This document shows, piece after piece, positions 21,254-33,730 of a stretch of DNA of 64,000 nucleotides. The first letter of the stretch is position 1, and each line of letters starts with the position of its first letter. The notes beneath the pieces were generated by a model. That model made no database searches and was not told the origin of the DNA. It was given only the letters and a program-made list of their open reading frames with translations. The DNA comes from Candidatus Deferrimicrobiaceae bacterium (lineage in GTDB: Bacteria; Desulfobacterota; Deferrimicrobia; Deferrimicrobiales; Deferrimicrobiaceae), in contig CAWBVY010000004.1 in the NCBI GenBank assembly GCA_963792415.1, positions 384,001 to 448,000 of the forward strand. Reading direction: 5' to 3'. The position numbers were made by a program, and so were the translations under genes.

Positions 21254-22048
21254 TCAGCGGGCCGGTGCGCCCCCCGGTTTCTTCGCGACGAAGATCGCTT
21301 TCTCGTCCGAGTAGGAGACGATCCGGCCCCCTTCGGCGAGGATGCGGAACGTCTCCCGCGCGAGCGGAAAGGCGGAGAGGAAGATCGTCTCGACCTCCCA
21401 TTGCACCGCCTTGGGACGGCCCGTCCGTGCCACCCATTCGGGGAAGGAGTGTGTTTTCCAAAGGGAGGCGGCCTGCAGGAGAAGAAGTCCCGCCCTCCCG
21501 AGGAACTCGAGCCACTCCTCCACGCGGTAGCTGCGCACGTGCGACGGGTCGCGGACCTTCTCGATGCCGTTCAGGAAGGCGTCGAGGGACGGCTCGCCGG
21601 GTACCACGCTGTCGATGATGCCGATCCGCCCGCCGGGGCGCGTCACCCGGGCCATCTCGGACAGCGCGGACCGGACGTCGGGGAAATGGTGCGGCGCGAT
21701 GCGGCACGTCACCCGGTCGAAGGTGGCGTCCCGGAACGGGAGCGCCTCGGCGTCGGCGGCCGCGAAGACCACGTTCCCCGACCGGCGCTCCGCGGCCAGA
21801 AGCCGCGCCTCCCGGAGCATGGACGGGGTCAGGTCCGACGCCACCACCCGGCCGGAACGCTCGGCGAGCGCCGCCGCGGTGTGGCCGCCTCCCGTCGCCA
21901 CGTCGAGGACCCTGTGCGCCGGATCGAGGGCGAGGCCCGTGAAGAGAAGATCGAGGTCCTCCACGTCCGTGTGGTCCGCGCTGCACCGGTATTTCGACGC
22001 CACCCGACCGAACTGCGCGCGGGTGCGCTCCTTCTCGGACAAAGGCAT
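21254..22048 (-). CDS. Class I SAM-dependent methyltransferase
   Basis: VLDVATGGGH motif I, DAEALPF, CRIAPHHF, RDPSHVR. GGAGG RBS. Confidence 0.88.
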   Translation of the reverse strand: MPLSEKERTRAQFGRVASKYRCSADHTDVEDLDLLFTGLALDPAHRVLDVATGGGHTAAALAERSGRVVASDLTPSMLREARLLAAERRSGNVVFAAADAEALPFRDATFDRVTCRIAPHHFPDVRSALSEMARVTRPGGRIGIIDSVVPGEPSLDAFLNGIEKVRDPSHVRSYRVEEWLEFLGRAGLLLLQAASLWKTHSFPEWVARTGRPKAVQWEVETIFLSAFPLARETFRILAEGGRIVSYSDEKAIFVAKKPGGAPAR

Positions 22049-22124
22049 TCGCGGTTCCTCCGCTCCCATTCTCCCCTGCGGAGTCGGGGATGACAAGACC
22101 GGGCGCGGGGATACAATGGGGAGC

Positions 22125-25100
22125 ATGCAGGACCGGCTCCCCGCCATCTCGCGACTGTACGCCGGACCGTTCCCCGCGCTCGAGGAACGCCTGATCGGGC
22201 GGTATTTCGGCCGCGCAGGGCGCGACCCTTCGCTGGAGCACGTTCTTCTCGTGTCGTCCAACGAACTCCGGGAGCACCTGTTGAAGCGCCTGGCGTCGGA
22301 TCCCGCCGTTCCCTCCGTCTTCGCCGGCGCGTCCGTGATGACGCTGTACGATTTCGCCGTGCGCCTTCTGAAGCATCGCGGAAGCTTCCCGGTGGAACTT
22401 CCGCCTGCGAGGATGGCGGCGGCGATCTTCGCGGCGGTTCGCGAAACGTACGCATCGGGGGGCGGGGATTTCGGGGCGATCTCCGCGACGCCCGGCTTCA
22501 TCCCCGCCCTCGCCCGCACCCTTTCCGACCTCGAGGAAGGGTGCGTGGGGGACGCGGAGCTCGCGGTGGCCGAAAGGACGGCGAAGGATCGGGGGGCCCC
22601 CCGAAAGGCGGCGCGGTGGGCGGAGTGGCGGCGGCTCCGGGGAGCCGTGGGCAGGAAGATCCGGGCGATGGGGGGGGAGACGCGACGCCGGATCTTCCGG
22701 GATGCGGTGGCGGGATTCGAGCAGCCCGGCTACCCGTTCCGCGCGACCCTGTACGGATTCTACGACTTCACCCGGCTTCAGTGGATGCTGGTCGAAAGGC
22801 TCCTCTCTTCCGGCCTGCTGGACGATGTCTACTTCCCCGGTCTCTTCGACGGCGACGGGAATCTCCGTCCTTCGTTCCTGTACGCCGCCCGGGCGTGGGA
22901 TCGTCTGCGCGCCGCCTTCGAGGGAAACGTGGAGTACCTGAACGACGTCCCCGCCGCGGGGGTCGCGTCGGTGCGCGAGCGGATCTTCTCCCCCGCCCCG
23001 CCCGCGGAACCGGGGCCCGCGCCGTTCTCCGTCCTCTCCGCTCCCCACGCGGAAGGGGAGATTCGGCTCGCCGCCAGGCGGGTCCGGTCCTGGATTGACG
23101 CTTCCCCCGGGGCTTCCGTTTTTCTCGTCGCGAGGAGAGTGACCCCGGAAATGGCGGCCGACTGGGAACGGATCGCCGCGGAGTACGGCATCGACACGGC
23201 GGGGCGTCTCGATATCCCCCTCTCTTCCGTCCCCCTCGTGCGCCTCCTCCTGCGGATGATCTCGGTCGCGCGGGACGATTTCCCGCGTCGGGAAGTGATC
23301 GACGTCCTCTCGTCTCCGTATCGTCGTTTCGCCGGGGGGGAGAACGGCGCCGCCGCGCGGCCCGACCTGTGGGACCTCCTCTCGAAGGAGCTCCTGATCG
23401 TTTCCGGGCCCGATTGGGAAACGCGGCTGGCCCGGCCTCCGCGGAGCCGTCGCCCGGCGGAGGATGCCGATGCGGGGGAGGACGCTCGCGCGGCCCAGCT
23501 CGCCCGGCTCCGGTCCGAGGTGCGCGCCTTGAGGGCCTCCCTGCGGCCCCTGGCCGAGGCGCGGGGGTACGCCGCATTCGCACGGGCGGTCCGGACCCTT
23601 GTCTTGCGCGAGTTCCGGGTCGTACGGGACGACGCCCCGGAGTGGGAGCGCGACCGCCGGGCGGTGGAGGCGCTCTTCGCGATCCTGGACGACCTCGAGG
23701 CGATCCCCGACCGGGAGGCGCCGTGGCCGGGGATGCGGGAGGGGGCGGAGGGATTTTCGGCCCTCCTCTCCGCGCAGCGGCTCTTCGTCGGCGAGCGGGG
23801 AGGGATGCGCAGGCCCGGCGCGGTCGTCCTCGGGGATGCCGTCGTCCTCCGGGGCGTCACGGCGGACCGGGCGATCGTCCTGTCGGTGAACGAGGACGCG
23901 GTGCCGGCCCAGCTCGAGGAGGACCCGCTCCTGCCGGACGACGACCGGGAGGAGATCAACCGCGGGACGCGGCAGACGGACCTGCCGGACGCCTTGACGC
24001 TGCGGCGCCGCAACGCGGCGGAGGAGAAGCTCCTCTTCGCCCTTCCCGCCGCCGCCGTGCGGGAGGAGGTCGTTTTCTCGGTCCTGCGCGCCGACGCCGC
24101 GGGCGCGGCCCGGCGCCCCTCCCGGTACCTGCTCCACCTGCTGTCGCGCTTCGCCGGCCCCGCGGTCTTCTCCGAGGAGTGGGAAGCCGCCTCCGGCGCC
24201 GTCGTCGAACGCCTCCCCCGGTCTCCCTTCGACGCCCTCGGGGGCGAGGGGCCGCGCAGCGCGCGGGAGGCGGCCCTGCGCGCGTGGAGAGCCGGAGCGG
24301 AGCCGGAGGGCGCCGCGGCCTTCGTCCCGTGGGGCAAGGTGCGCGGGATTCTGGCCGCGTGGGCCGATCGGGCCGCCGGGGAGGGGATCTTCCCCGGCCC
24401 GGGTCTCTTCGTCCGCCTCCCGGCCTGGCACAGCGCCTCCGCGCTGGAGGAGCTGGCCCGGTGTCCGTACCGGTACTTCCTCCGGCGCGTCGTCCGCCTC
24501 GATCCGCCGGAGGAGCCCGAAGAGGCGCTCGCGCTCTCTCCCGCGGAGCTGGGGGAGATCGCCCACGACATCCTGCGCCGTCTTGGTCAGGACGCCGCGG
24601 CGGGAAAGGGGTGGAGGAACATCGAAGCCGCCGCGCGAAGGGAAGTGGAGCGCTTCGCCCGGGAGAACCCGACCGGTCTTCCCGGCCTCTTCCGGATCCG
24701 GTGCCGGGGCGTGGAGCGGGACGTGGCGCGCCTGGCGGCGTGGGAGCGGAGTCGGGAGGCCGGGCGCCCCGGGTGGCGGGTCGACCGGATCGAGGAGGCG
24801 TTCTCCCTCCCCGCCACCCCACTCCTCCCGGCGCTTCGCGGGCGGGTCGACCGGATCGATCGCGGTCCCGAGGGGGAAGCCCGGGTGATCGACTACAAGT
24901 ATCGCGACCCGGCCCGCGGGGAGATCCCCCCGGACTGGATCCGTCACGGTCTCTCCCATCAGGTCCCCGTCTATCTGTCGTTCGCGGCGTCTCTCTCACC
25001 GGAGCCGTCCGCCGTCTCGGCCGCCTTCTACTTCCTTCGCAACGGGTTCGGGGTCGAGGAGGCGCCGGGGTGGGACGATATCCGCGTCGAGTGGACCGCG

Positions 25101-25340
25101 TCCCTCGCCGGCTGGCTCTCCCTCGCCGCCGCGGGGGCGTTCCCGCCACTGCCGCACCACCGGTTCACCAGCGCGGGGCGGGCGTCTCCCCGGTATTGCG
25201 ATTCCTGCCCGTTCCGTGATCATTGCCGCGTCTCGCCCGTCTACGACGGCTCCGAGATCGACCCGGGCACGCTCGGGGCGCGGATCGCGCGGGAACCGGC
25301 GCTGCGCCCGGTGGCCGACCACCGGGCCGGGAAGGAGTGA
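22125..25340 (+). CDS. addB: AddB-like subunit (inactive helicase fold + PD-(D/E)XK nuclease with Fe-S cysteines)
   Basis: YGFYDFT, SASALEELARCPYRYF, RGRVDRID..DYK, CDSCPFRDHC; directly upstream of a UvrD-type helicase. Confidence 0.75.
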   Translation: MQDRLPAISRLYAGPFPALEERLIGRYFGRAGRDPSLEHVLLVSSNELREHLLKRLASDPAVPSVFAGASVMTLYDFAVRLLKHRGSFPVELPPARMAAAIFAAVRETYASGGGDFGAISATPGFIPALARTLSDLEEGCVGDAELAVAERTAKDRGAPRKAARWAEWRRLRGAVGRKIRAMGGETRRRIFRDAVAGFEQPGYPFRATLYGFYDFTRLQWMLVERLLSSGLLDDVYFPGLFDGDGNLRPSFLYAARAWDRLRAAFEGNVEYLNDVPAAGVASVRERIFSPAPPAEPGPAPFSVLSAPHAEGEIRLAARRVRSWIDASPGASVFLVARRVTPEMAADWERIAAEYGIDTAGRLDIPLSSVPLVRLLLRMISVARDDFPRREVIDVLSSPYRRFAGGENGAAARPDLWDLLSKELLIVSGPDWETRLARPPRSRRPAEDADAGEDARAAQLARLRSEVRALRASLRPLAEARGYAAFARAVRTLVLREFRVVRDDAPEWERDRRAVEALFAILDDLEAIPDREAPWPGMREGAEGFSALLSAQRLFVGERGGMRRPGAVVLGDAVVLRGVTADRAIVLSVNEDAVPAQLEEDPLLPDDDREEINRGTRQTDLPDALTLRRRNAAEEKLLFALPAAAVREEVVFSVLRADAAGAARRPSRYLLHLLSRFAGPAVFSEEWEAASGAVVERLPRSPFDALGGEGPRSAREAALRAWRAGAEPEGAAAFVPWGKVRGILAAWADRAAGEGIFPGPGLFVRLPAWHSASALEELARCPYRYFLRRVVRLDPPEEPEEALALSPAELGEIAHDILRRLGQDAAAGKGWRNIEAAARREVERFARENPTGLPGLFRIRCRGVERDVARLAAWERSREAGRPGWRVDRIEEAFSLPATPLLPALRGRVDRIDRGPEGEARVIDYKYRDPARGEIPPDWIRHGLSHQVPVYLSFAASLSPEPSAVSAAFYFLRNGFGVEEAPGWDDIRVEWTASLAGWLSLAAAGAFPPLPHHRFTSAGRASPRYCDSCPFRDHCRVSPVYDGSEIDPGTLGARIAREPALRPVADHRAGKE

Positions 25341-25343
25341 CCG

Positions 25344-28300
25344 GTGCGGGAGAACCGTGAAAAGGCGGCCAGCGAGTTCCGGCGCGACCTCGCCGTCGAC
25401 GCCTCCGCGGGGACGGGGAAAACGTCCACCCTCGTGGCGCGGGCGACCAACCTCTTCCTCGCCCTTCCGGACCTGTCCACCGACCACGTCCTCCTGCTGA
25501 CCTTCACCGACAAGGCGGCGGCGGAGATGAAGGCGCGGGTCACGGAAGGGTGGGAGCGGCTCTTCGCGGCGACGCAGGAAACCGGCGACATCGACGAGGT
25601 CGCGCTGCGCGCGGCGGCGTGGAACCCGCTCGCCCGCGTTCCAGGGGAACTCTACCCCGACTTCGCCGCGCTGCGCCGGCGGGTCGAGGAGATGGTCGAC
25701 GGGGTGGGCCGCCTCTCCGTGACGACGTTCCACTCGTTCTGCGCCCGCGTTCTCCGCTCCTTCCCGGCGGAGGCGGGGGTCGACCCTCTCTTCGAAGTGC
25801 TGCCGGAGACCGCCGCGGCCGACGCGTGGGACGCCGCGTTCCGGAAATTTCTGCAGGGCGAGTTCGGGGCGGAAGAGGTCCTCCCGGAGTGGGATCGGGT
25901 CCTTTCCCGTCTCCCCGACCCCTCGAAGGCGTGGTGGGTGATCCGCCGCCTTTGCCTCTTCCAGCGCGACCTGCTGCGCGGCCCGGCGCCCGATTTCGGG
26001 TCCCCCCGGGACTTCCTCGGCTTCCTCGTCAGGGAACACGGTCCCGATGTCGATTATTTCCGCTCCTTCGTCGCCGGGACCCTGGCTCCGGAGGACGACC
26101 CGGCGGCGGTCGCGTTCCGGGAGGCGCTCCGCGTCCTCGATTCCGCGTGGGAATCGGTCCTGGAGGGGGATCTCGCCTCCGCCGCGGCGGTCGCGGAGGA
26201 GGGGGCGATGGCCTTTGCCATGGACCTCCGCAAGGCGGCGAGCAAGAAAAAGTTCCCGCGCCCCGAGGGGCCGAAACTGTCCGAGGTGCGCGACGCGCTG
26301 CTCCGGTTCTGGAAACGGGTGGCCGAGGTGCCGGAGGGGGATGCGGCGGCGCGCTTCCTCGTGGCGCGCGCCGGGGCCGCTCTCGCATCGTTCGAGGCGG
26401 CGAAGGGGAGCGGGCTCGACTTCATGGACCTGCTGTTGCGGGCGAGCGATCTTCTCGCGGGGAACCCCGCGGTCGCGCGGCGGCTGGGGGAGCGGTTCCG
26501 GTACATCTTCGTGGACGAGTTCCAGGACACGGACCCTCTGCAGGCGGGGGTTCTCCGGGCGATCGCTGCCGACGCGGCTCCGGGGCGCCTCTTCGTCGTC
26601 GGGGATCCGAAGCAGTCGATCTACGGGTTCCGCCGCGCGGATATCCAGGTGTACAGGCAGTTCCGCGAGGGGATGGTCGACGCCGGGGGGGAGGACGTCC
26701 CGCTGGCCCGCAACTTCCGCAGCCGCCCCGACCTGCTCGCGACGCTCTCGGGCCTCTTCTCCCGCGTTCTCTCCGGCGGGGAGGACTTCTCCCCCGCCTA
26801 CGCGCACGTTGTGCCCAACCGGAACGACCCCGGCGAGGGGCATCCCGTTTCGCTCTATCGGCTCGACCCCGCCGTGGACGAGTCGGAGTTCCTCGCGGCG
26901 CTGGTCGGTCGGATCGCCGGATCGGTGAAGGTCCGGGATCGCGACGGCATCGAACGCCCCGCCTCGTTCCGGGACATCGCCGTCCTCTACCGCTCCGACG
27001 CCTCGGGCGAGGTGCTTTCGGGGTATCGCGCGGCGCTCGCGGCCGCGGGGATCCCCCATGTCGTCCCTTCGCGCAAGGGGTTCTTCCTGCGGCAGGAGAT
27101 CCAGGACGTGCGGATGGTTCTTTCCGCCATCGATGTCCCCGCGGACCGGTCGGCGCGCCACGCGGCGATGAAGACGATCTTCTTCGGACTGTCGGACGAG
27201 GAGATCCACCCGCTCTACGGGGAGGACCCGGCCGCGGTCCCTCCGCGCGTGCGCGAGGCCGTGGCGCTCCTTTCCCGCCTCTCCGCGCGGCGGGGGCGGG
27301 CGTCCCTTCCGGACCTTCTCGCGGCCTTGTACGGGGAGACGGGGGTCGATTTCGTCGCGGCGAGGATTCCCGAGGGGGAGCGGATCGTCCGGAATCTGTC
27401 GAAGGCCGCGGAGATGGCGAGGGCCTTCGAATGGGGCGGCGCCGGTTCCCTCAAGCTCTTTCTCGCGGAGATCCGCCGGAAGGCCGCCGAGGGGCGGGAG
27501 GAGGACGAAGTCCCCGACTTCGAGGAGGGGGAGGACGCCGTGCGCCTTTCCACGATCCACGGAGCGAAGGGGCTCGAGTTCCCGGTCGTGATCCTCGCGG
27601 GGATCTCCCGCGGCGGGCGGAAGGGGCCGGAGGGGCTTCGGGTGGACCGGGTCCGGGGTCTCTCCGCGGTGATCTTTCCCGGGTTCCGGACGTATTCGGC
27701 GTTCCGTCAGGTGCCGGGCGCGGGTCGCCCGGTGACGTTCGAGGAGTGGGAGAAGGAGAAGATGATGGCGGAGGAGCGCCGTCTTCTCTACGTCGCGGCC
27801 ACCCGCGCGAAGGACCGGCTCTACCTGGTGGACCGGGGGACGGGGCCCGGCTCGACCCTTCGGGACGCGCTGATGGAGGGAATCTCCGGGGCGACGGCAG
27901 AGGGGGAGGGCCGCTGCCTCGTCACGGGGCTTCCGGGGGAACGTCTTCGGCTCAGCGAGGGGCCGCCCGACGGGTCCGCGGGCGGGGAGCTGCTCCGGGT
28001 GTCGGTGACGTCGGTCCTGCGGGAGCCGGTCCCGCGTCCCCCCGCGCCTCTCGCCGTCCCGGCGATCGCCTGGGCGCGGGTCGGGGAGGAGGCGGAGCCG
28101 GTCCCGCCCGCGCCGGCACCCGAGCCGGTCTCCCTCGCCGAGCTGCACGGCCGCTTGCGCGGGAAACGGTTCGGGGAGAAGGTCCACCGCGTCTTCGAGG
28201 CGTACCCGCCGGTGACCGACCCGTGGCCGCCGCCGGGGGCGGCCCTTCCGGTGATCTGGGACGGGGAGGAGGAGCGCCGGTGGAACGCGATCGTCGTCGC

Positions 28301-28607
28301 GGTGCGCTCCTCCCCGCTGTTCCGGGAGCTTCGCTCCTCCCGCGTCGTCGGCACGGAGCTGGCGCTCCTCCGGGTCCGGGGCTTCACCGCGGACGAGGAA
28401 CGCGCCGACCTCGTCGTTCGGCTCCCTGGACCGGCGGGGGAGATGCGGGTCGTCGACTACAAGACCGGGGAGCGGGACCGGGCGCTCGAGAAGGCGTACT
28501 TTCTCCAGCTGCGCGAATACCGCGGCATACTCTCCGAGGCGTGGCGGGTCCCCGTGCGCGCCTTCCTCTGGTACGTGGAATCCGGCGCGTCGTTCGAGGT
28601 GGGCTGA
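25344..28607 (+). CDS. addA: AddA-like UvrD helicase-nuclease
   Basis: ASAGTGKT, TFTDKAA, VDEFQDTD, VGDPKQSIYGFR, TIHGAKGLEF, YVAATRAKD, C-terminal VDYKTG nuclease. Confidence 0.85.
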   Translation: MRENREKAASEFRRDLAVDASAGTGKTSTLVARATNLFLALPDLSTDHVLLLTFTDKAAAEMKARVTEGWERLFAATQETGDIDEVALRAAAWNPLARVPGELYPDFAALRRRVEEMVDGVGRLSVTTFHSFCARVLRSFPAEAGVDPLFEVLPETAAADAWDAAFRKFLQGEFGAEEVLPEWDRVLSRLPDPSKAWWVIRRLCLFQRDLLRGPAPDFGSPRDFLGFLVREHGPDVDYFRSFVAGTLAPEDDPAAVAFREALRVLDSAWESVLEGDLASAAAVAEEGAMAFAMDLRKAASKKKFPRPEGPKLSEVRDALLRFWKRVAEVPEGDAAARFLVARAGAALASFEAAKGSGLDFMDLLLRASDLLAGNPAVARRLGERFRYIFVDEFQDTDPLQAGVLRAIAADAAPGRLFVVGDPKQSIYGFRRADIQVYRQFREGMVDAGGEDVPLARNFRSRPDLLATLSGLFSRVLSGGEDFSPAYAHVVPNRNDPGEGHPVSLYRLDPAVDESEFLAALVGRIAGSVKVRDRDGIERPASFRDIAVLYRSDASGEVLSGYRAALAAAGIPHVVPSRKGFFLRQEIQDVRMVLSAIDVPADRSARHAAMKTIFFGLSDEEIHPLYGEDPAAVPPRVREAVALLSRLSARRGRASLPDLLAALYGETGVDFVAARIPEGERIVRNLSKAAEMARAFEWGGAGSLKLFLAEIRRKAAEGREEDEVPDFEEGEDAVRLSTIHGAKGLEFPVVILAGISRGGRKGPEGLRVDRVRGLSAVIFPGFRTYSAFRQVPGAGRPVTFEEWEKEKMMAEERRLLYVAATRAKDRLYLVDRGTGPGSTLRDALMEGISGATAEGEGRCLVTGLPGERLRLSEGPPDGSAGGELLRVSVTSVLREPVPRPPAPLAVPAIAWARVGEEAEPVPPAPAPEPVSLAELHGRLRGKRFGEKVHRVFEAYPPVTDPWPPPGAALPVIWDGEEERRWNAIVVAVRSSPLFRELRSSRVVGTELALLRVRGFTADEERADLVVRLPGPAGEMRVVDYKTGERDRALEKAYFLQLREYRGILSEAWRVPVRAFLWYVESGASFEVG

Positions 28608-28626: not shown

Positions 28627-29106
28627 TCAGCGGACCCGCTTCAGGTAGATGAGCTTGTCGTCGCCCATCGCGTAGTAGTCGGGCAGCCGCGCGGCGAGGG
28701 TGCAGCCGACCTTGTCGTAGAATTGCCGCGTCGTGCCGTAGCTCTCCAGGGACGACGTCTCGATCACCAGGAGGTACCCCCCGCGTCGCCGGACCTCCTC
28801 CTCGACGAACGACAGGATGGACCGTCCGTACCCTTTTCCCATCCGGTCCGTGCGCGTCGCGATCCAGTACAGGTCGAAGGTCCCCGTCGTCATCGCGTTC
28901 TTCCCGAAGCAGGCGTAGGCGACCACGGTGCCGTCGTCCTCCACCAGGACGTACGGGTGGTAGTCGTCCTGCCCTTTCTGCGTCAACGCGACGTCCACCA
29001 GCTCCATGGCCACGTCCACCTCGAACGGCTTGAACGCGTTCGTTCCCGCGACCAGTTCCCGGATCGCCTCGCGGTCCCCCGCCTCGATCCCGCGGACGCG
29101 CGTCAC
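28627..29106 (-). CDS. GNAT N-acetyltransferase
   Basis: FDLYWIA...RMGKGYGR acetyl-CoA motif, LVIETSS, FYDKVG. GTGA overlap with the upstream gene. Confidence 0.85.
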   Translation of the reverse strand: MTRVRGIEAGDREAIRELVAGTNAFKPFEVDVAMELVDVALTQKGQDDYHPYVLVEDDGTVVAYACFGKNAMTTGTFDLYWIATRTDRMGKGYGRSILSFVEEEVRRRGGYLLVIETSSLESYGTTRQFYDKVGCTLAARLPDYYAMGDDKLIYLKRVR

Positions 29107-30131
29107 CGCGCCCCCAGGGCCATGCCCAGCCGCAGGATCTCGGCGATAAGGTCTTGGTAGGAGAGCCCCGCCGCGCGCGCCGCGCGCGGCATCCCCGCGT
29201 CGGTGGAGATGTCGGGATTCGGGTTGACCTCGAGGACGAACAGCTCCCCTTTGGCGTTCATGCGGAAGTCGACCCTGGCATACCCGGTCAGGCGGAAGAT
29301 CCGCGCACAGGCGAGGGTGATCTCCGAAAGCCGGGCGGCGAGCCCGGGCGGGACGTCCGCGGGGCAGGCCGGGGCGATCTCCGAATAGGAGGGGTGCGTC
29401 GCGTTCCACTTCGAATCGTACGTGCAGAGCCGCCAGCGCGGGTTCCGGTAGACGAGCTCCGCGGGTGGGAGCGACCGGTGCGGATCGGTGGCCGACCCGT
29501 TCCCGAGCACGCCGACGTTGAACTCCCGCCCCTCGACGAACTCCTCGACGAGCGAATCCTGCTGGAATGTTTCCCTCAGCCACTTCACCTGCCGGCGCAG
29601 GCCGGCCAGGTCGGCGACGACGCTGTCCTCGGTGATCCCGGCCGAGCCGTCCTCGTTCGCCGGTTTCACGACCAGCGGGTACGAAAGCCCCGGCTCCCGG
29701 GCGGGATCGCCGGTGCAGAGCCGGAAGCGCGGCGTCGGGATCCCGTTGGCGATCATCAACTGCTTGGAGAGCGCCTTGCTGTTGCAGATCCCGAGCGCGA
29801 GCGGCCCGTTTCCGGTGTACGGCAGGCGGAGCAGTTCGAGGAGGGCGCAGGCGTGGAGCTCCTTTTCGGGGGAGAGGTCCGGGCACTCGCACAGGTTGAA
29901 GACCGCCTCGGCCCCGGAGGAACGCAGCCCCGAGATCAGCTCCCCGGGGTCCTTTCCGAACGCGTGGGTCCACGCGTCGTGGCCGGCGGAGCGAAGGGTC
30001 TCCGTCACCAGCTTCGCGTTGATCGCCAGGTCCATGTCCTCCCGGTGTTCCTCCCTCACATCCTTGAGCGATTCGAAGACGGAGGTGTAGAGGACGGCGA
30101 CGCGCGCCCCCTTCGTCGCGACCGGGGTCAC
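29103..30131 (-). CDS. ATP-grasp ligase, D-Ala-D-Ala ligase-like (B)
   Basis: VFNLCE, KPANEDGSAGI, EEFVEGREF, YARVDFR, LEVNPNP. GTGA overlap. Confidence 0.85.
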   Translation of the reverse strand: MTPVATKGARVAVLYTSVFESLKDVREEHREDMDLAINAKLVTETLRSAGHDAWTHAFGKDPGELISGLRSSGAEAVFNLCECPDLSPEKELHACALLELLRLPYTGNGPLALGICNSKALSKQLMIANGIPTPRFRLCTGDPAREPGLSYPLVVKPANEDGSAGITEDSVVADLAGLRRQVKWLRETFQQDSLVEEFVEGREFNVGVLGNGSATDPHRSLPPAELVYRNPRWRLCTYDSKWNATHPSYSEIAPACPADVPPGLAARLSEITLACARIFRLTGYARVDFRMNAKGELFVLEVNPNPDISTDAGMPRAARAAGLSYQDLIAEILRLGMALGAR

Positions 30132-31120
30132 GCGGCCCCCATCCCGAGGCGGGAAAGGGCGTGCGAGAGGATCTCGCCGACGAGGGACAGGTAAGGGATC
30201 CCCATCCGGTCCGCCAGGATCGGCAGGTCGCCGTACCCCGGGGAAAGGCCCGGCAGGGGGTTGCACTCGATGAAGTGCGGCGTGCCCGAAGCGTCGAGAC
30301 GGAAGTCGATCCGGGAGAAGTCGCGGCATCCGAGGGCCCGGTAGATCCCCAGCGCGCACCGCTCGATCTCCGAGAGGACCTCTGCCGGCAGCGCCGGGGG
30401 GACGCGGTACGCCACGCGGTTCTCCCAGTCCCTCTTCACCTCGAGGGAGTATACGAACTCGGCCGGGGGGACCGTCTTCGGAACGATCTCCATCATCCCG
30501 GCGACCCGGGGCGGATCGTTCCCCAGCACTCCCACCGTGACCTCCGCCCCCGGCACGAACGCCTCGACCATCGCTTCCTGGCGGTATGTCCGTGTGACGA
30601 ACCGCACCATCTCCCTCGCCTGGTCGAGCGACGCTGCGCGCGAAGCGATCCGGACCCCTTTGCTCGATCCTTCGAAGACGGGTTTCACCATGACGGGGTA
30701 GGGAAACGGGAGAGAATCGAGCTCCTCGGCGGACCGGAAGGTCCGGAACGGCGGGGTGGGAAACCCGTCGTGCTCCACGAGGCGCTTGGCCACCGGCTTG
30801 TCGAGGGTGACGCAGAGCGTGAGCGGATCGGAGCCGACGTACGGGACGCCGAGCATCTCGAGGACGGCAGGGACATGCGCCTCGCGGCACCGGCCGCCTT
30901 CCCCTTCCGCGATGTTGAAGACGATGTCGGGCGCGGCGCCCCGCAGCGCGTCGACGAACCCGCGTCCGGCGGGAAGCCGGCGGACGTCGTGGCCCAGGAG
31001 GGAGAGGGCGTTCTCGATGTGGCCCACCGTCGCCTCTGAGTCGTACTCCTCGAAGGCGTCCTCGGGCAGCTGTTCGGGCGTGTCGGCCGGCTTTACGTTG
31101 AAGGCGAGCCCGACTCGCAC
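30128..31120 (-). CDS. ATP-grasp ligase, D-Ala-D-Ala ligase-like (A)
   Basis: VFNIAEG..GRCREAHVP, KPVFEGSSKG, SRIDFR, IECNPLPGL. GTG start with AGGAGG RBS inside the kamA 3' end. Confidence 0.85.
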   Translation of the reverse strand: MRVGLAFNVKPADTPEQLPEDAFEEYDSEATVGHIENALSLLGHDVRRLPAGRGFVDALRGAAPDIVFNIAEGEGGRCREAHVPAVLEMLGVPYVGSDPLTLCVTLDKPVAKRLVEHDGFPTPPFRTFRSAEELDSLPFPYPVMVKPVFEGSSKGVRIASRAASLDQAREMVRFVTRTYRQEAMVEAFVPGAEVTVGVLGNDPPRVAGMMEIVPKTVPPAEFVYSLEVKRDWENRVAYRVPPALPAEVLSEIERCALGIYRALGCRDFSRIDFRLDASGTPHFIECNPLPGLSPGYGDLPILADRMGIPYLSLVGEILSHALSRLGMGAA

Positions 31121-32412
31121 CGGCGTTTCCTCCTGGCCATCCGCTCGTTCCCCGCGGGGATGAGCGCGCGGACCTCCCCGGTCAGCAGGCGGTAGACGTC
31201 GTTGCGCGGCGGAGGGAGCGCCGAATCGACCCGCGCCGAAGGGCGGCCGTCGTCCCGCGCCTCCTCGTAGCTCACGACGATCCCCTCGTAGTTCCGCAGG
31301 ACCGTCCGGTCCTCGCCCATCGAGAGGATGTAGTTCGGCATCAGCGGGATCTTGCCGCCGCCCCCGGGGACGTCCACCACGTAGGAGGGGATCGCGAGCC
31401 CCGAGGTGAGGCCCCGCAGCGCCTCCATGATCTGGATCCCCTTCGACAGGCGGGTTCGGAAATGGTCGAGCCCCCGGACCATGTCGCACTGGAAGAGGTA
31501 GTAGGGGCGGACCTTCGCCCTCAACAGCTCCGTGTTGAGCTTCCGGATGATCTCGGCGTGGTCGTTGACGCCCTTGAGCAGGACGGTCTGGTTGTTGACG
31601 GGAACGCCCGCGCGAAGGAGCCGGTCGCACGCCTGGCGCGCCTCGGGGGTGACCTCCCGGGAGTGGTTGAACTGCGTGTTCAGCCAGACGGGGCCGTACT
31701 TTTCGAGCACCGCGCACAGCTCGTCGTCGATCCGCATCGGGAGGACCACCGGCACGCGGGTGCCGATCCGGATGATCTCGACGTGCGGGATCTTGCGGAG
31801 GCTCTTCAATATGTACTCGATCCGATCGGTCGGAAGCGTCAGCGGGTCCCCCCCCGAGACGATGACGTCGCGGATCTCCTCGTGGCGGCGGATGTAGGCG
31901 AACATCTTCGACAGCTCGAACTCGGTCTTCGCCGATTCGCCCAGGGTCCAGATCCGCTTCCGCGTGCAGTGGCGGCAATACATCGAGCAGAAGTTGGTGA
32001 CGACCATCAGGCAGCGGTCCGGGTACCGGTGGGTGAGCCCCGGGACCGGCATGTCCTTCTCCTCCTCGAGGGGGTCGTCCTCGCCGTCCTCGGCGCCGAA
32101 ATACTCCTCGGCGGAGGGGATCGACTGGCGGGCGATCGGATCGTCGGGGTCGTCGAACCGGATGAGCGAGAGGTAGTAGGGGGTGACGGCGAGCCGGTAG
32201 ATGTCCGTCACGCGGGAGAGGCGCTGCGCCTCTTCCGGGGGGATCCGGCAGAGCCCCGCGAGGTCGTCGACGGAGGTGATGCGGTTGGACAGCTGCCAGC
32301 GGTAATCGTTCCACTGCTCGCGCGAGACCTGCGGCCAGGGAAGGCCGACCGGCGCGGTCCTCCCCTTGGGGCGCCTCAACGGTGCGGCGACGTCACCGGG
32401 ATGGGTCTCCAT
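31093..32412 (-). CDS. kamA: KamA family radical SAM enzyme, probable lysine 2,3-aminomutase
   Basis: HRYPDR, CSMYCRHC, SGGDPL, YYLFQCD, VVDVPGGGGK (PLP lysine). Confidence 0.88.
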   Translation of the reverse strand: METHPGDVAAPLRRPKGRTAPVGLPWPQVSREQWNDYRWQLSNRITSVDDLAGLCRIPPEEAQRLSRVTDIYRLAVTPYYLSLIRFDDPDDPIARQSIPSAEEYFGAEDGEDDPLEEEKDMPVPGLTHRYPDRCLMVVTNFCSMYCRHCTRKRIWTLGESAKTEFELSKMFAYIRRHEEIRDVIVSGGDPLTLPTDRIEYILKSLRKIPHVEIIRIGTRVPVVLPMRIDDELCAVLEKYGPVWLNTQFNHSREVTPEARQACDRLLRAGVPVNNQTVLLKGVNDHAEIIRKLNTELLRAKVRPYYLFQCDMVRGLDHFRTRLSKGIQIMEALRGLTSGLAIPSYVVDVPGGGGKIPLMPNYILSMGEDRTVLRNYEGIVVSYEEARDDGRPSARVDSALPPPRNDVYRLLTGEVRALIPAGNERMARRKRRCESGSPST

Positions 32413-32484
32413 GATCCTCCTCGAGTTCCCCGTTTCCGGGGTGGATGGCCGGGGGGATCCCGGCGTTAGCGCCTGGAAAGACCG

Positions 32485-33021
32485 TTATCGCCCGCTCGTG
32501 CGCACCCAGAGAAAGTCGACGAGCGTCTTCCCCTTGTTCGAATATGCGAACTCCTGCTCCCCGGCGAAGTAGAGGCTCTCCCCCTTGCGGGCCACGTAGG
32601 AGATCTGTCCGAGCCGGAGGCTCAGGCGCCCGGCCAGAACGTGGATATAGTTCTCCCCTTCCTGCGGGGGCTCCGGGAGTGTCTGCCTCCCCGGGGCGAT
32701 CGTGGCGCGATATGCGACGATGGAGCGGTAGCGGCTCTTGGGCAGAAGCGTGTCGAACTCCTTGTATCCGGTGACATCGGAAGGGAGGGCGTCGCTCTTC
32801 CGGAAGAGCACCTTCTCCTCGTCGACGTCGGCGAAGAAGGAGGAGGGCGTCTCGTTGAGGGCGGAGAGGATCTCGAAGAGGTTCGCAACGGAGGGGGAGG
32901 TGAGGTTGCGCTCGACCTGGGAGATGGCGCCCTTGGTCAGGCCCGCGCGTTCGGCCAGGTCGGCCTGGGCCAGCCCGTTGATCTGGCGGAGGTGCTTGAT
33001 CCTTGCGCCGATGTCCATCAT
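32485..33021 (-). CDS. XRE-HTH + cupin transcriptional regulator
   Basis: IGARIKHLRQ..LAERAGLTKGAISQVERNLTSPS HTH plus C-terminal cupin (GENYIHVL.G). Confidence 0.9.
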   Translation of the reverse strand: MMDIGARIKHLRQINGLAQADLAERAGLTKGAISQVERNLTSPSVANLFEILSALNETPSSFFADVDEEKVLFRKSDALPSDVTGYKEFDTLLPKSRYRSIVAYRATIAPGRQTLPEPPQEGENYIHVLAGRLSLRLGQISYVARKGESLYFAGEQEFAYSNKGKTLVDFLWVRTSGR

Positions 33022-33062
33022 GGGACTGTTTTTTAAACCCTCCGTTTAGTAAACCTATCCAA

Positions 33063-33091
33063 ATTCTAGAAATACGCGTTCGCGGTGTCAA
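33063..33091 (-). promoter_or_regulatory. sigma70 promoter for the XRE-kamA operon
   Basis: Minus strand TTGACA (33091-33086), 17 bp, TAGAAT (33068-33063). Confidence 0.75.
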
Positions 33092-33606
33092 CCGGAAAAT
33101 AGCGAATCCCATAAACTTTTTTAATATTCGACCGCTGCCCTCTAATCACGTGGGGACGGTTTGCTATACCTGAAAAACGGCCTTTCCGTGAAAAGGAAAT
33201 CGCGGTCCGGGGGTGGCGCGCGCCGCGCGAGCCCTTGCACGGCGTGGATTCCCGCGCACAGGTGCGCGACGGATCGCGAAGGGAACGCGGAGGGGATTCC
33301 ATCCGAAGGGGTGATCTCATCGCCACGGCGTTTTCTCCGATCCGTTTTCTCCGCGGCAATGTATTTTTCCGTTGCCGCCGGGCAAGGAGCGCGCTCCCCC
33401 GGTACCCGGGGACCTGCTCAATGCATTGATCGGCAGCGGAGAGAAAAACTTTATCGTTTTCGAGGGATTTTCCGCGCCGTCCGCGCAACTGCGCGCATCC
33501 AGCTCTCGTTCGAACCGCGCTCCCCGGGGTACCCCCGCAGGAAAAAGCCAGGGGGGCGCGAGCCCGGGAGCAAGGTTCGGCGTTGTGCGCTTTCCTGGTG
33601 CGCGGA

Positions 33607-33636
33607 TTGACAACGCGAAGGGAAATCGGAGAGAAT
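33607..33636 (+). promoter_or_regulatory. sigma70 promoter for tRNA-Ala
   Basis: TTGACA, 18 bp, GAGAAT, lying 18 nt upstream of the tRNA. Confidence 0.6.
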
Positions 33637-33654: not shown

Positions 33655-33730
33655 GGGGGAGTAGCTCAGCTGGGAGAGCACCACGTTCGCAACGTGGGGG
33701 TCGAGGGTTCAATCCCCTTCTCCTCCACCA
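33655..33730 (+). tRNA. tRNA-Ala (anticodon CGC)
   Basis: 76-nt cloverleaf, G3:U70 alanine identity pair, anticodon arm CCACG-TTCGCAA-CGTGG, GGTTCAATCC T-loop, encoded CCA. Confidence 0.97.

Follow-up and report, generated by a model that had tools for sequence, protein, structure and literature searches.

What does a bacterium make with a lysine 2,3-aminomutase when the gene for that enzyme is joined, by overlapping codons, to genes for two ligases resembling D-alanine--D-alanine ligase (Ddl) and for an acetyltransferase? The question is raised by a locus in a 64,000-nucleotide stretch of the genome of a Candidatus Deferrimicrobiaceae bacterium (assembly GCA_963792415.1, contig CAWBVY010000004.1, positions 384,001 to 448,000), referred to here as the window and numbered from its first letter. 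Five co-oriented genes on its minus strand (28627-33021) encode, in order, a regulator, the aminomutase KamA, two ATP-grasp ligases designated LigA and LigB, and a small acetyltransferase of the GNAT family. An original prediction, made from the letters of this locus, held that the operon makes an acetylated beta-lysine peptide or amine conjugate; the work described here supports that reading as far as sequence can carry it, and the conjugate itself is something that we infer. The four-enzyme core probably builds a small beta-lysine compound, and the cassette relates both to the pathways for beta-lysine solutes and to the ATP-grasp amide ligases.

The operon and its aminomutase

Because the window contains approximately 70% G+C, raw lists of its open reading frames (ORFs) are full of false frames; the minus-strand frame through 28627-33021 was chosen by codon-position G+C, followed by translation and family scans. 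The five-gene operon is real. Translations, family scans and a promoter scan agree on five co-oriented genes behind a sigma-70-type promoter, as originally described, and a letter-by-letter reading of the junctions bears out the overlaps between the genes: ligA/ligB and ligB/GNAT are both GTGA overlaps, and the GTG start codon of ligA follows an AGGAGG at 8 nucleotides (nt), and the gene overlaps the last 28 nt of kamA. Of the span first assigned to the element, 28627-33091, the genes stand as given; position 33091 belongs to the -35 box of the promoter, and no gene ends there.

The aminomutase gene (31093-32412, minus strand, ATG start) encodes 439 amino acids (aa) with a LAM_C domain (96.6 bits), and its product passes the KamA subfamily model TIGR00238 (354.7 bits against a cut-off of 199.2). 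On the curated AblA model TIGR03820 it scores 510.3 bits, 15 under the cut-off of 525.4, and it falls much further below the cut-offs of the models for glutamate and arginine aminomutases and for EpmB. An assignment as EpmB was considered and rejected on this ground (TIGR03821, 247.2 bits against 369.3). Against the clostridial lysine 2,3-aminomutase structure 2A5H of the Protein Data Bank (PDB), KamA aligns over residues 28-428 with an E value of 9.3e-133. In lysine 2,3-aminomutase the motif CxxxCxxC holds the cluster, Arg134 binds the substrate carboxylate, Lys337 binds pyridoxal phosphate, and the epsilon-amino group of the substrate is held by Asp293 and Asp330, two positions at which glutamate 2,3-aminomutase differs. 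All seven residues (Cys125/129/132, Arg134, Asp293, Asp330 and Lys337 of 2A5H) are retained in the KamA of the window, whose motifs QCD and VVD stand opposite Asp293 and Asp330. The claim that KamA keeps the lysine-type residues (HRYPDR, QCD, VVD) is thus borne out in the translation, in the alignment to 2A5H and in related cassettes, and since all seven are kept in 69 of 69 cassette KamA proteins, beta-lysine is the likely product of this enzyme throughout the related cassettes.

Two divergent ligases and an acetyltransferase

LigA (30128-31120, minus strand, 330 aa, GTG start) and the more divergent LigB (29103-30131, minus strand, 342 aa, GTG start) are both recognized by the Pfam model Dala_Dala_lig_C (115.1 and 96.5 bits, respectively), and among solved structures they come nearest to Ddl and VanA (E 1e-27 to 1e-30). 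Both lie far under every curated Ddl and Van cut-off. Their best Ddl scores, 163.1 bits for LigA and 130 for LigB, come from model NF002378, where the cut-off is 243; on TIGR01205 (cut-off 245.65) they reach 132.4 and 114.4 bits. A separate gene in the same genome clears the Ddl cut-off (281.2 bits against 245.65), and a gene that does so is found in 58 of the 61 genomes sampled from the phylum. In the Protein Atlas the ligases fall only in generic clusters named for the D-alanine--D-alanine ligase family.

The separation from Ddl is also seen in a quick IQ-TREE phylogeny with a midpoint root, built from 74 rows (34 LigA, 24 LigB, 14 canonical Ddl including E. coli DdlB and the genome's own ddl, VanA and VanB) and sampled, to limit its size, from 30 of 80 related loci and 12 of 30 Ddl loci. 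The 16 Ddl/Van rows split from the 58 LigA and LigB rows with a support of 100, which settles in favor of the original prediction a point that it had itself named as a possible refutation, namely grouping with canonical Ddl. LigB forms a single clade (24 rows, support 98), as does LigA (34 rows, support 89), and the same organism groups reappear within both, a recurrence that fits inheritance of the two genes as a pair.

A survey of residues in 83 LigA, 63 LigB and 34 Ddl/Van rows, aligned to E. coli DdlB and numbered accordingly, indicates what has been kept and what has changed. The ATP/Mg residues (K97, K144, E180, E187, K215, R255, D257, E270 and N272) are retained in nearly all rows of both ligases. 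In DdlB, His63, Ser281 and Leu282 are residues of the D-alanine site, the latter two at the positions of the carboxylate of the second D-alanine. His63 has become Glu in every row of both ligases (83/83 and 63/63) and Glu68 has become Arg in all 83 LigA rows, while Leu282 is replaced by Asp in 72 of these and Gly276 by Asp in 55 of the 63 LigB rows (six others have a gap). Positions 281/282 read Tyr or Ser followed by Asp in LigA, and Ala or Ser followed by Gly in LigB; Ser150 and Tyr210 are present in LigA and gone from LigB; and Tyr216 has given way to Trp in 60/83 LigA and 63/63 LigB rows. The ligases had been described as lacking the GGxSxE motif of Ddl, and LigA is indeed without its two glycines, but the glutamate of the motif (DdlB Glu15) is retained there, an equivalent being found in 73 of 83 LigA rows as against 12 of 63 in LigB. 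The acidic segments EEYDSE and EDMD that were said to stand in the ligases are both found in the translations.

It is established, or nearly so, that the two proteins are ATP-grasp ligases competent for catalysis and that neither is a D-alanine--D-alanine ligase. The presence of acidic residues where Ddl holds the carboxylate of the second D-alanine suggests an amine-rich acceptor, and, with the Glu15 anchor lost, LigB may be suited to a donor whose alpha-amino group is not free, for example one that is acetylated or already extended. A lone ATP-grasp gene on plasmid pMl2 of Sinorhizobium medicae (L121, 7001-7999) matches 99% of LigA at 35% identity and was set aside as not being a cassette; it lies among insertion sequences, with a major facilitator superfamily transporter alongside.

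The last gene of the operon (28627-29106, minus strand, 159 aa, GTG start) encodes a GNAT that is recognized by Acetyltransf_1 of Pfam (34.7 bits). The AblB model TIGR03827 does not match this protein (ACETYLTRANSFERASE) or any other in the genome, which agrees with the proposal of a route distinct from the two-gene AblAB pathway. The best curated matches are RimI-type N-terminal acetyltransferases, at 32.4 bits against a cut-off of 86.4, and RimI structures in the PDB are matched at an E value of approximately 1e-5. A profile of 49 cassette GNATs, on the other hand, matches PDB entry 2R7H over 151 residues, the whole length of the family, at 2.5e-48 (next match 3.7e-6), so that a solved structure exists for the family. 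Its depositors named the protein a 'putative D-alanine N-acetyltransferase of GNAT family'; we take it to be a structural-genomics entry from a Desulfovibrio strain, and a literature search by entry code and name returned no functional paper. Eight acidic positions are invariant or nearly so in cassette GNATs (E29, E35, E116, D149, D11, D38, D78 and D143) and would fit a cationic acceptor.

Conservation of the cassette and its possible product

A scan for LigA across one genome per species yielded at least 569 confirmed relatives, of which the best 80 loci were retained and the five proteins of the window were placed on them by tblastn. KamA was matched in 72 of the 80 and a second ligase in 70, and the same-strand order KamA-LigA-LigB-GNAT was recovered in 46, or in 43 of the 67 loci that have room for all four genes. 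By their record titles, the loci with the full order belong to Deferrimicrobiaceae-like 'Deltaproteobacteria', Planctomycetota, Acidobacteriota, Chloroflexota/Dehalococcoidales, Clostridia and Syntrophales, and as such the four-gene arrangement, whose failure to recur had also been named as a possible refutation, is conserved across several phyla. Within the genus of the window LigB is present in 25 of 28 genomes (18 of 19 of high quality). In the sample of 61 genomes from the phylum, at least 24, counted by eye, carry an adjacent pair of sub-cut-off Ddl-like genes, and in at least 19 of these a KamA gene lies no more than 5 kb away on that contig. The cassette also occurs in small genomes, for example a 1.7-Mb Dehalococcoidales chromosome.

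Two variants of the arrangement were encountered. In ten Thermodesulfobacteriota-type loci (L034, L039 and eight others) a histidine kinase and two response regulators stand between ligA and kamA-ligB, and four Omnitrophota loci have two LigA-like genes followed by kamA. The ten former loci encode, more precisely, a PAS histidine kinase, a sigma-54 response regulator and a lone receiver domain, with tatC upstream. No further partner gene common across phyla emerged from an all-against-all BLAST of 4446 ORFs from the 80 loci or from Pfam scans of 132 ORFs from 12 loci, and the flanks vary among loci, including sigma-54 activators, two-component systems, MscS-like proteins, an ion channel, an arginase-family protein and a transposase. 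Directly after the GNAT gene, on the same strand, a MarC-family integral membrane protein (118.5 bits) is encoded at L044:8502-9104 and in nine more Dehalococcoidia loci; it is a possible transporter for the product of the cassette.

Given these observations, it is reasonable to postulate that the operon forms a complete unit in itself for the biosynthesis of a small amide that contains beta-lysine, a scheme to which, taken whole, we assign a probability of roughly 55%. KamA would turn L-lysine into beta-lysine, and LigA and LigB, acting as a heterodimer or a fused pair, would form two amide bonds, one after the other; the acidic residues specific to the family would hold at least one substrate that is a cationic amine, be it beta-lysine, lysine or a different one. 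LigA, in which the equivalent of Glu15 is kept, would take an acyl donor with a free amino group, and LigB, in which it is mostly lost, one that is N-blocked or already extended; the GNAT would then cap the remaining amine with an acetyl group. The product would most likely be a cytoplasmic metabolite of general physiology, a solute or organic cation, and not a part of the cell wall. In this lineage the unit would be controlled by the regulator transcribed from the same promoter, which belongs to the XRE family with a cupin domain and probably senses a small molecule through the latter. A bolder version, which we advance tentatively and would ourselves wager against, has an obligate LigA/LigB heterodimer linking beta-lysine by isopeptide bonds to a second diamino acid or amine, with a cap added by the GNAT; this new and widespread class of acetylated oligo-amide would serve anaerobes of many phyla as a housekeeping organic cation or solute, while in this genus the beta-lysine pool would also make up for the missing EpmB in EF-P modification.

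A number of points weigh against the proposed scheme. The substrate assignments are all read from aligned residues. With the GNAT of the window as the query, an acetyltransferase was matched in just 48 of the 80 loci. The relatives are mostly metagenome-assembled genomes from groundwater, soil, peat and lakes, as judged by record titles, which disfavors a dedicated salt-stress solute. A polyamine substitute, tried as a candidate and rejected, is not needed given the spermidine-synthase-like genes in the genome (PF01564, 69.4 bits), and support for a missing polyamine route was not obtained; NspC had no match in the genome and SpeA none above cut-off. Contigs from four RNA libraries (X1-X4; estuary and sediment, four studies) match the operon with 90-99% likeness, reach 29-30 of its 30 bins and run across the junctions GNAT/ligB, ligB/ligA and ligA/kamA; they lend weak support to transcription of the operon in nature, which they leave unproven because RNA libraries can hold DNA, and as contigs they cannot prove a single transcript. 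Runs X1 and X2 gave no cover of positions 33259-33400, upstream of the promoter, a gap to which we attach no weight.

The pairing of the ligases calls for the same caution. A complex of LigA and LigB was modeled from alignments of 48 rows per protein in three runs and with three controls; its median score was 0.88, against 0.00 for the best control, and at least 92% of contacts are common to the runs, with a predicted local distance difference test (pLDDT) of at least 83 for the partners. The mark of 0.88 is reached by 116 of 157 solved complexes and by 2 of 215 mismatched pairs. The heterodimer suggested by the original prediction therefore passes its controls, yet the model cannot separate an A:B dimer from A:A plus B:B, and since Ddl homodimers are solved, the pass may mirror likeness to them. 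Separately, there are 587 longer relatives of LigA; the 120 among the matches listed measure 661-748 aa, many of them from cultured Myxococcota (Myxococcus, Corallococcus, Cystobacter, Hyalangium and Archangium). The fused ligase of Myxococcus fulvus (P0146, 748 aa) contains two complete ligase modules, but its halves are 45% and 37% identical to LigA, versus 33% and 26% to LigB, and do not represent a LigA-LigB pair. Since both halves resemble LigA, a feature shared with the Omnitrophota type, the fusion speaks for cooperation between two modules and not for an A/B pair in particular. A ligase is fused to a GNAT in five proteins of approximately 500-512 aa, which occur as singletons or pairs and could be read-through of a GTGA junction. 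In Myxococcus xanthus the aminomutase gene MXAN_4699 affects evolved swarming on prey, according to a preprint section that names no ligase (10.64898/2026.05.15.725110).

A second use of the aminomutase must be considered alongside the proposed amide. Family scans of the flanks found no lysine-fermentation, efp, epmA or mur gene adjoining the operon, as had been noted; this needs one correction, in that an epmA exists elsewhere in the genome (C7:181453-182385, L124), its product scoring 304.2 bits against the curated cut-off of 286.9. The genome also encodes an elongation factor P (EF-P) with a PGKG loop of the Lys type (C6:469901-470452, L128). In a search that covered all but some 72,000 bases, the KamA of the operon was the only KamA-family gene found. 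Among 16 genomes of the genus a KamA-family match occurs at a single place in 15 (split into two pieces in one), and EpmA is present in 14; the sole KamA-family gene of the genus is thus that of the cassette, although EpmA and a Lys-type EF-P are present, an observation that is new here. On this basis the cassette KamA probably also supplies beta-lysine to EpmA for EF-P in this genus, and may act as a stand-in for EpmB. Such a double use would be notable in that EpmB and clostridial KamA yield opposite enantiomers of beta-lysine, and the orphan EpmA of the genus provides a setting in nature for asking if EF-P modification can draw on an aminomutase of the clostridial type. In many EpmA-bearing genomes elsewhere in the phylum there is a second KamA gene, which is shorter and in several cases adjoins epmA (G011, G053, G027 and G044). 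EpmA above cut-off is absent from 14 of the 24 pair-bearing genomes counted in the phylum sample and present in 8 of the 37 without the pair, which argues that the cassette does not follow beta-lysylation of EF-P.

The same counts bear upon the possibility that the operon is a protein-modification system, in which beta-lysine is attached by the ligases to a macromolecule (EF-P, for example, or a ribosomal protein) and the adduct is then acetylated by the GNAT. Proteins are indeed modified by some ATP-grasp enzymes, RimK among them, beta-lysine is used on EF-P, the genus has both EpmA and the PGKG-loop EF-P, and the best curated matches of the GNAT are of the RimI type, though far below cut-off. 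We nonetheless consider this unlikely, as the cassette lacks a conserved target or carrier gene next to it, EpmA and the pair are distributed as described above, and the ligases appear to keep the closed Ddl architecture that is known for small substrates. A secondary metabolite built on beta-lysine, be it an antibiotic, a siderophore or a signal, would be in keeping with the beta-amino acids and ATP-grasp ligases of antibiotic pathways (blasticidin S and the streptothricin type) and with the MarC-family gene located behind that of the GNAT in 10 Dehalococcoidia loci. The phyla have no exporter, resistance or tailoring gene in common, though, and a housekeeping role fits better with a cassette that is near-core in the genus (25/28) and resides in the 1.7-Mb Dehalococcoidales genome; we rate this explanation as quite improbable.

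Little credence can be given to the idea that the operon yields only N-epsilon-acetyl-beta-lysine, as AblA and AblB do, with the ligases serving something else: KamA does come just short of the AblA cut-off and a GNAT does follow in the operon, but neither that GNAT nor any other protein of the genome matches AblB, and the ligases sit between kamA and the GNAT gene with overlapping codons, in a position kept across phyla. Least credible of all is an altered building block for peptidoglycan or the envelope, assembled with beta-lysine by ligases akin to Ddl/Van or to D-Asp ligases. The solved relatives of the ligases and the name given to 2R7H by its depositors speak for it, against which stand the clades apart from Ddl/Van, the replacement of the Ser281/Leu282 positions and the retention of a true ddl in 61 of 61 sampled genomes, of which 58 have a gene over the Ddl cut-off; moreover, 12 annotated loci are free of mur, van and pbp genes save for one unrelated Mur-ligase-like gene 2 kb away (L083).

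A small beta-lysine amide, the reading that we prefer, has partial precedents. The N-epsilon-acetyl-beta-lysine pathway of methanogens similarly places a lysine 2,3-aminomutase ahead of a GNAT in one operon, with beta-lysine as the committed intermediate; here, unlike in AblA/AblB, two ATP-grasp ligases are inserted, and a GNAT of 159 aa lies outside the AblB model. That pathway is predicted in Pelobacter carbinolicus (PMC3543383). With Ddl and Van the ligases have in common the fold family and the ATP/Mg catalytic residues, as well as the dimeric arrangement predicted for LigA/LigB, while they differ in their sub-cut-off scores, their separate clades, the replacement of His63, Glu68, Gly276, Ser281 and Leu282, and the existence of a true ddl elsewhere. 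The cassette would share a logic with pyrrolysine synthesis (PylB/PylC/PylD), where lysine is first rearranged by a radical S-adenosylmethionine enzyme and the product is then linked to the amine of a second lysine by an ATP-grasp ligase of the Ddl-like kind. The enzymes lack homology at the level of families: PylB is not a KamA-family enzyme, LigB reaches 24.4 bits on the PylC model TIGR03909 (cut-off 248.3), LigA has no match to that model, and there is no PylD here. The synthesis of N-acetylglutaminylglutamine amide, in which Ngg is a GNAT fused to an ATP-grasp dipeptide ligase, likewise combines these two activities to give an N-acetylated peptide solute; it uses another ATP-grasp subfamily and glutamine substrates, and no aminomutase. 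With EpmA/EpmB the parallel is a KamA-family enzyme providing beta-lysine that is joined to the amine of a lysine, although there the joining enzyme is a paralogue of lysyl-tRNA synthetase and not an ATP-grasp enzyme, and the EpmB model fails here. A Geobacter efp-genX-yjeK arrangement has been described (PMC5585712).

No paper on a unit of KamA, Ddl-like ligases and GNAT, or on its product, was found in open-access full text and bioRxiv (main texts, partly searched without the '2,3' phrase). If the proposed scheme is true, a common metabolite of anaerobes in soils, sediments and groundwater is still missing from chemistry, and hundreds of genes labeled 'D-alanine--D-alanine ligase' carry the wrong label. 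Given the four-gene size of the core, the solved relative of its GNAT and the cultured carriers or near relatives (Myxococcus and its kin with fused ligases), the product could come to light by ordinary expression and mass spectrometry.

Promoter, regulator and flanking genes

The regulator at the head of the operon (32485-33021, minus strand, 178 aa, ATG start) is a helix-turn-helix protein of the XRE family with a cupin domain (HTH_3, 46.1 bits; Cupin_2, 35.6 bits) and was matched in 17 of the 80 related loci, all close relatives. It was considered as an equivalent of PuuR and rejected, for it scores 58.4 bits on NF007408, below the cut-off of 211, and has only the HTH_3 and Cupin_2 architecture in common with that protein. 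Upstream of its gene lies a sigma-70-type promoter-like site, TTGACA-17-TAGAAT (33063-33091, minus strand), which agrees with the consensus at 11 of 12 positions and is one of two sites detected in 5.8 kb, as compared with 0.5 +/- 0.8 in shuffled sequences. All 12 aligned relatives, which have LigA proteins 70-94% identical to that of the window, keep the -35 element TTGACA unchanged. The 5' leader is strongly conserved; in it, directly behind the -10 box, a palindrome GTTTA-C-TAAAC (33037-33047, minus strand) was spotted by eye in the alignment, and its core TTTA.TAAA is retained among the aligned relatives; it is a candidate operator through which the regulator might control its own synthesis. 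An automated scan for inverted repeats of at least 8 with a 6-base seed near the promoter found none. Approximately 75 nt upstream of the -35 box, a motif GGTATAGCAAACC (33153-33165, minus strand) is nearly invariant in the 12 relatives amid variable surroundings.

Between the regulator gene and kamA, just before the ribosome-binding site of the latter, a direct reading gives a hairpin CCCCG-GAAA-CGGGG (32426-32439, minus strand). Loci L023 and L026 have a hairpin with different stem letters at the same spot, and RNA-library contigs from three runs stop at 32426-32433, at this hairpin.

Family scans of the flanks place AddB-like and AddA/RecB-like genes downstream, converging on the end of the operon. 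These two genes (21564-28607, plus strand) encode proteins of 1258 aa, with a PD-(D/E)XK domain, and 1087 aa, respectively, and their unit ends 19 nt from the stop codon of the GNAT gene with no terminator-like site between the converging units; a terminator scan of the 5.8 kb returned 0 sites, below shuffled sequence. Upstream, priA diverges from the start of the operon. The 950-nt spacer before it contains a tRNA-Ala gene (anticodon CGC; 33655-33730, plus strand) with a promoter-like site of its own, TTGACA-18-GAGAAT (33607-33636, plus strand).

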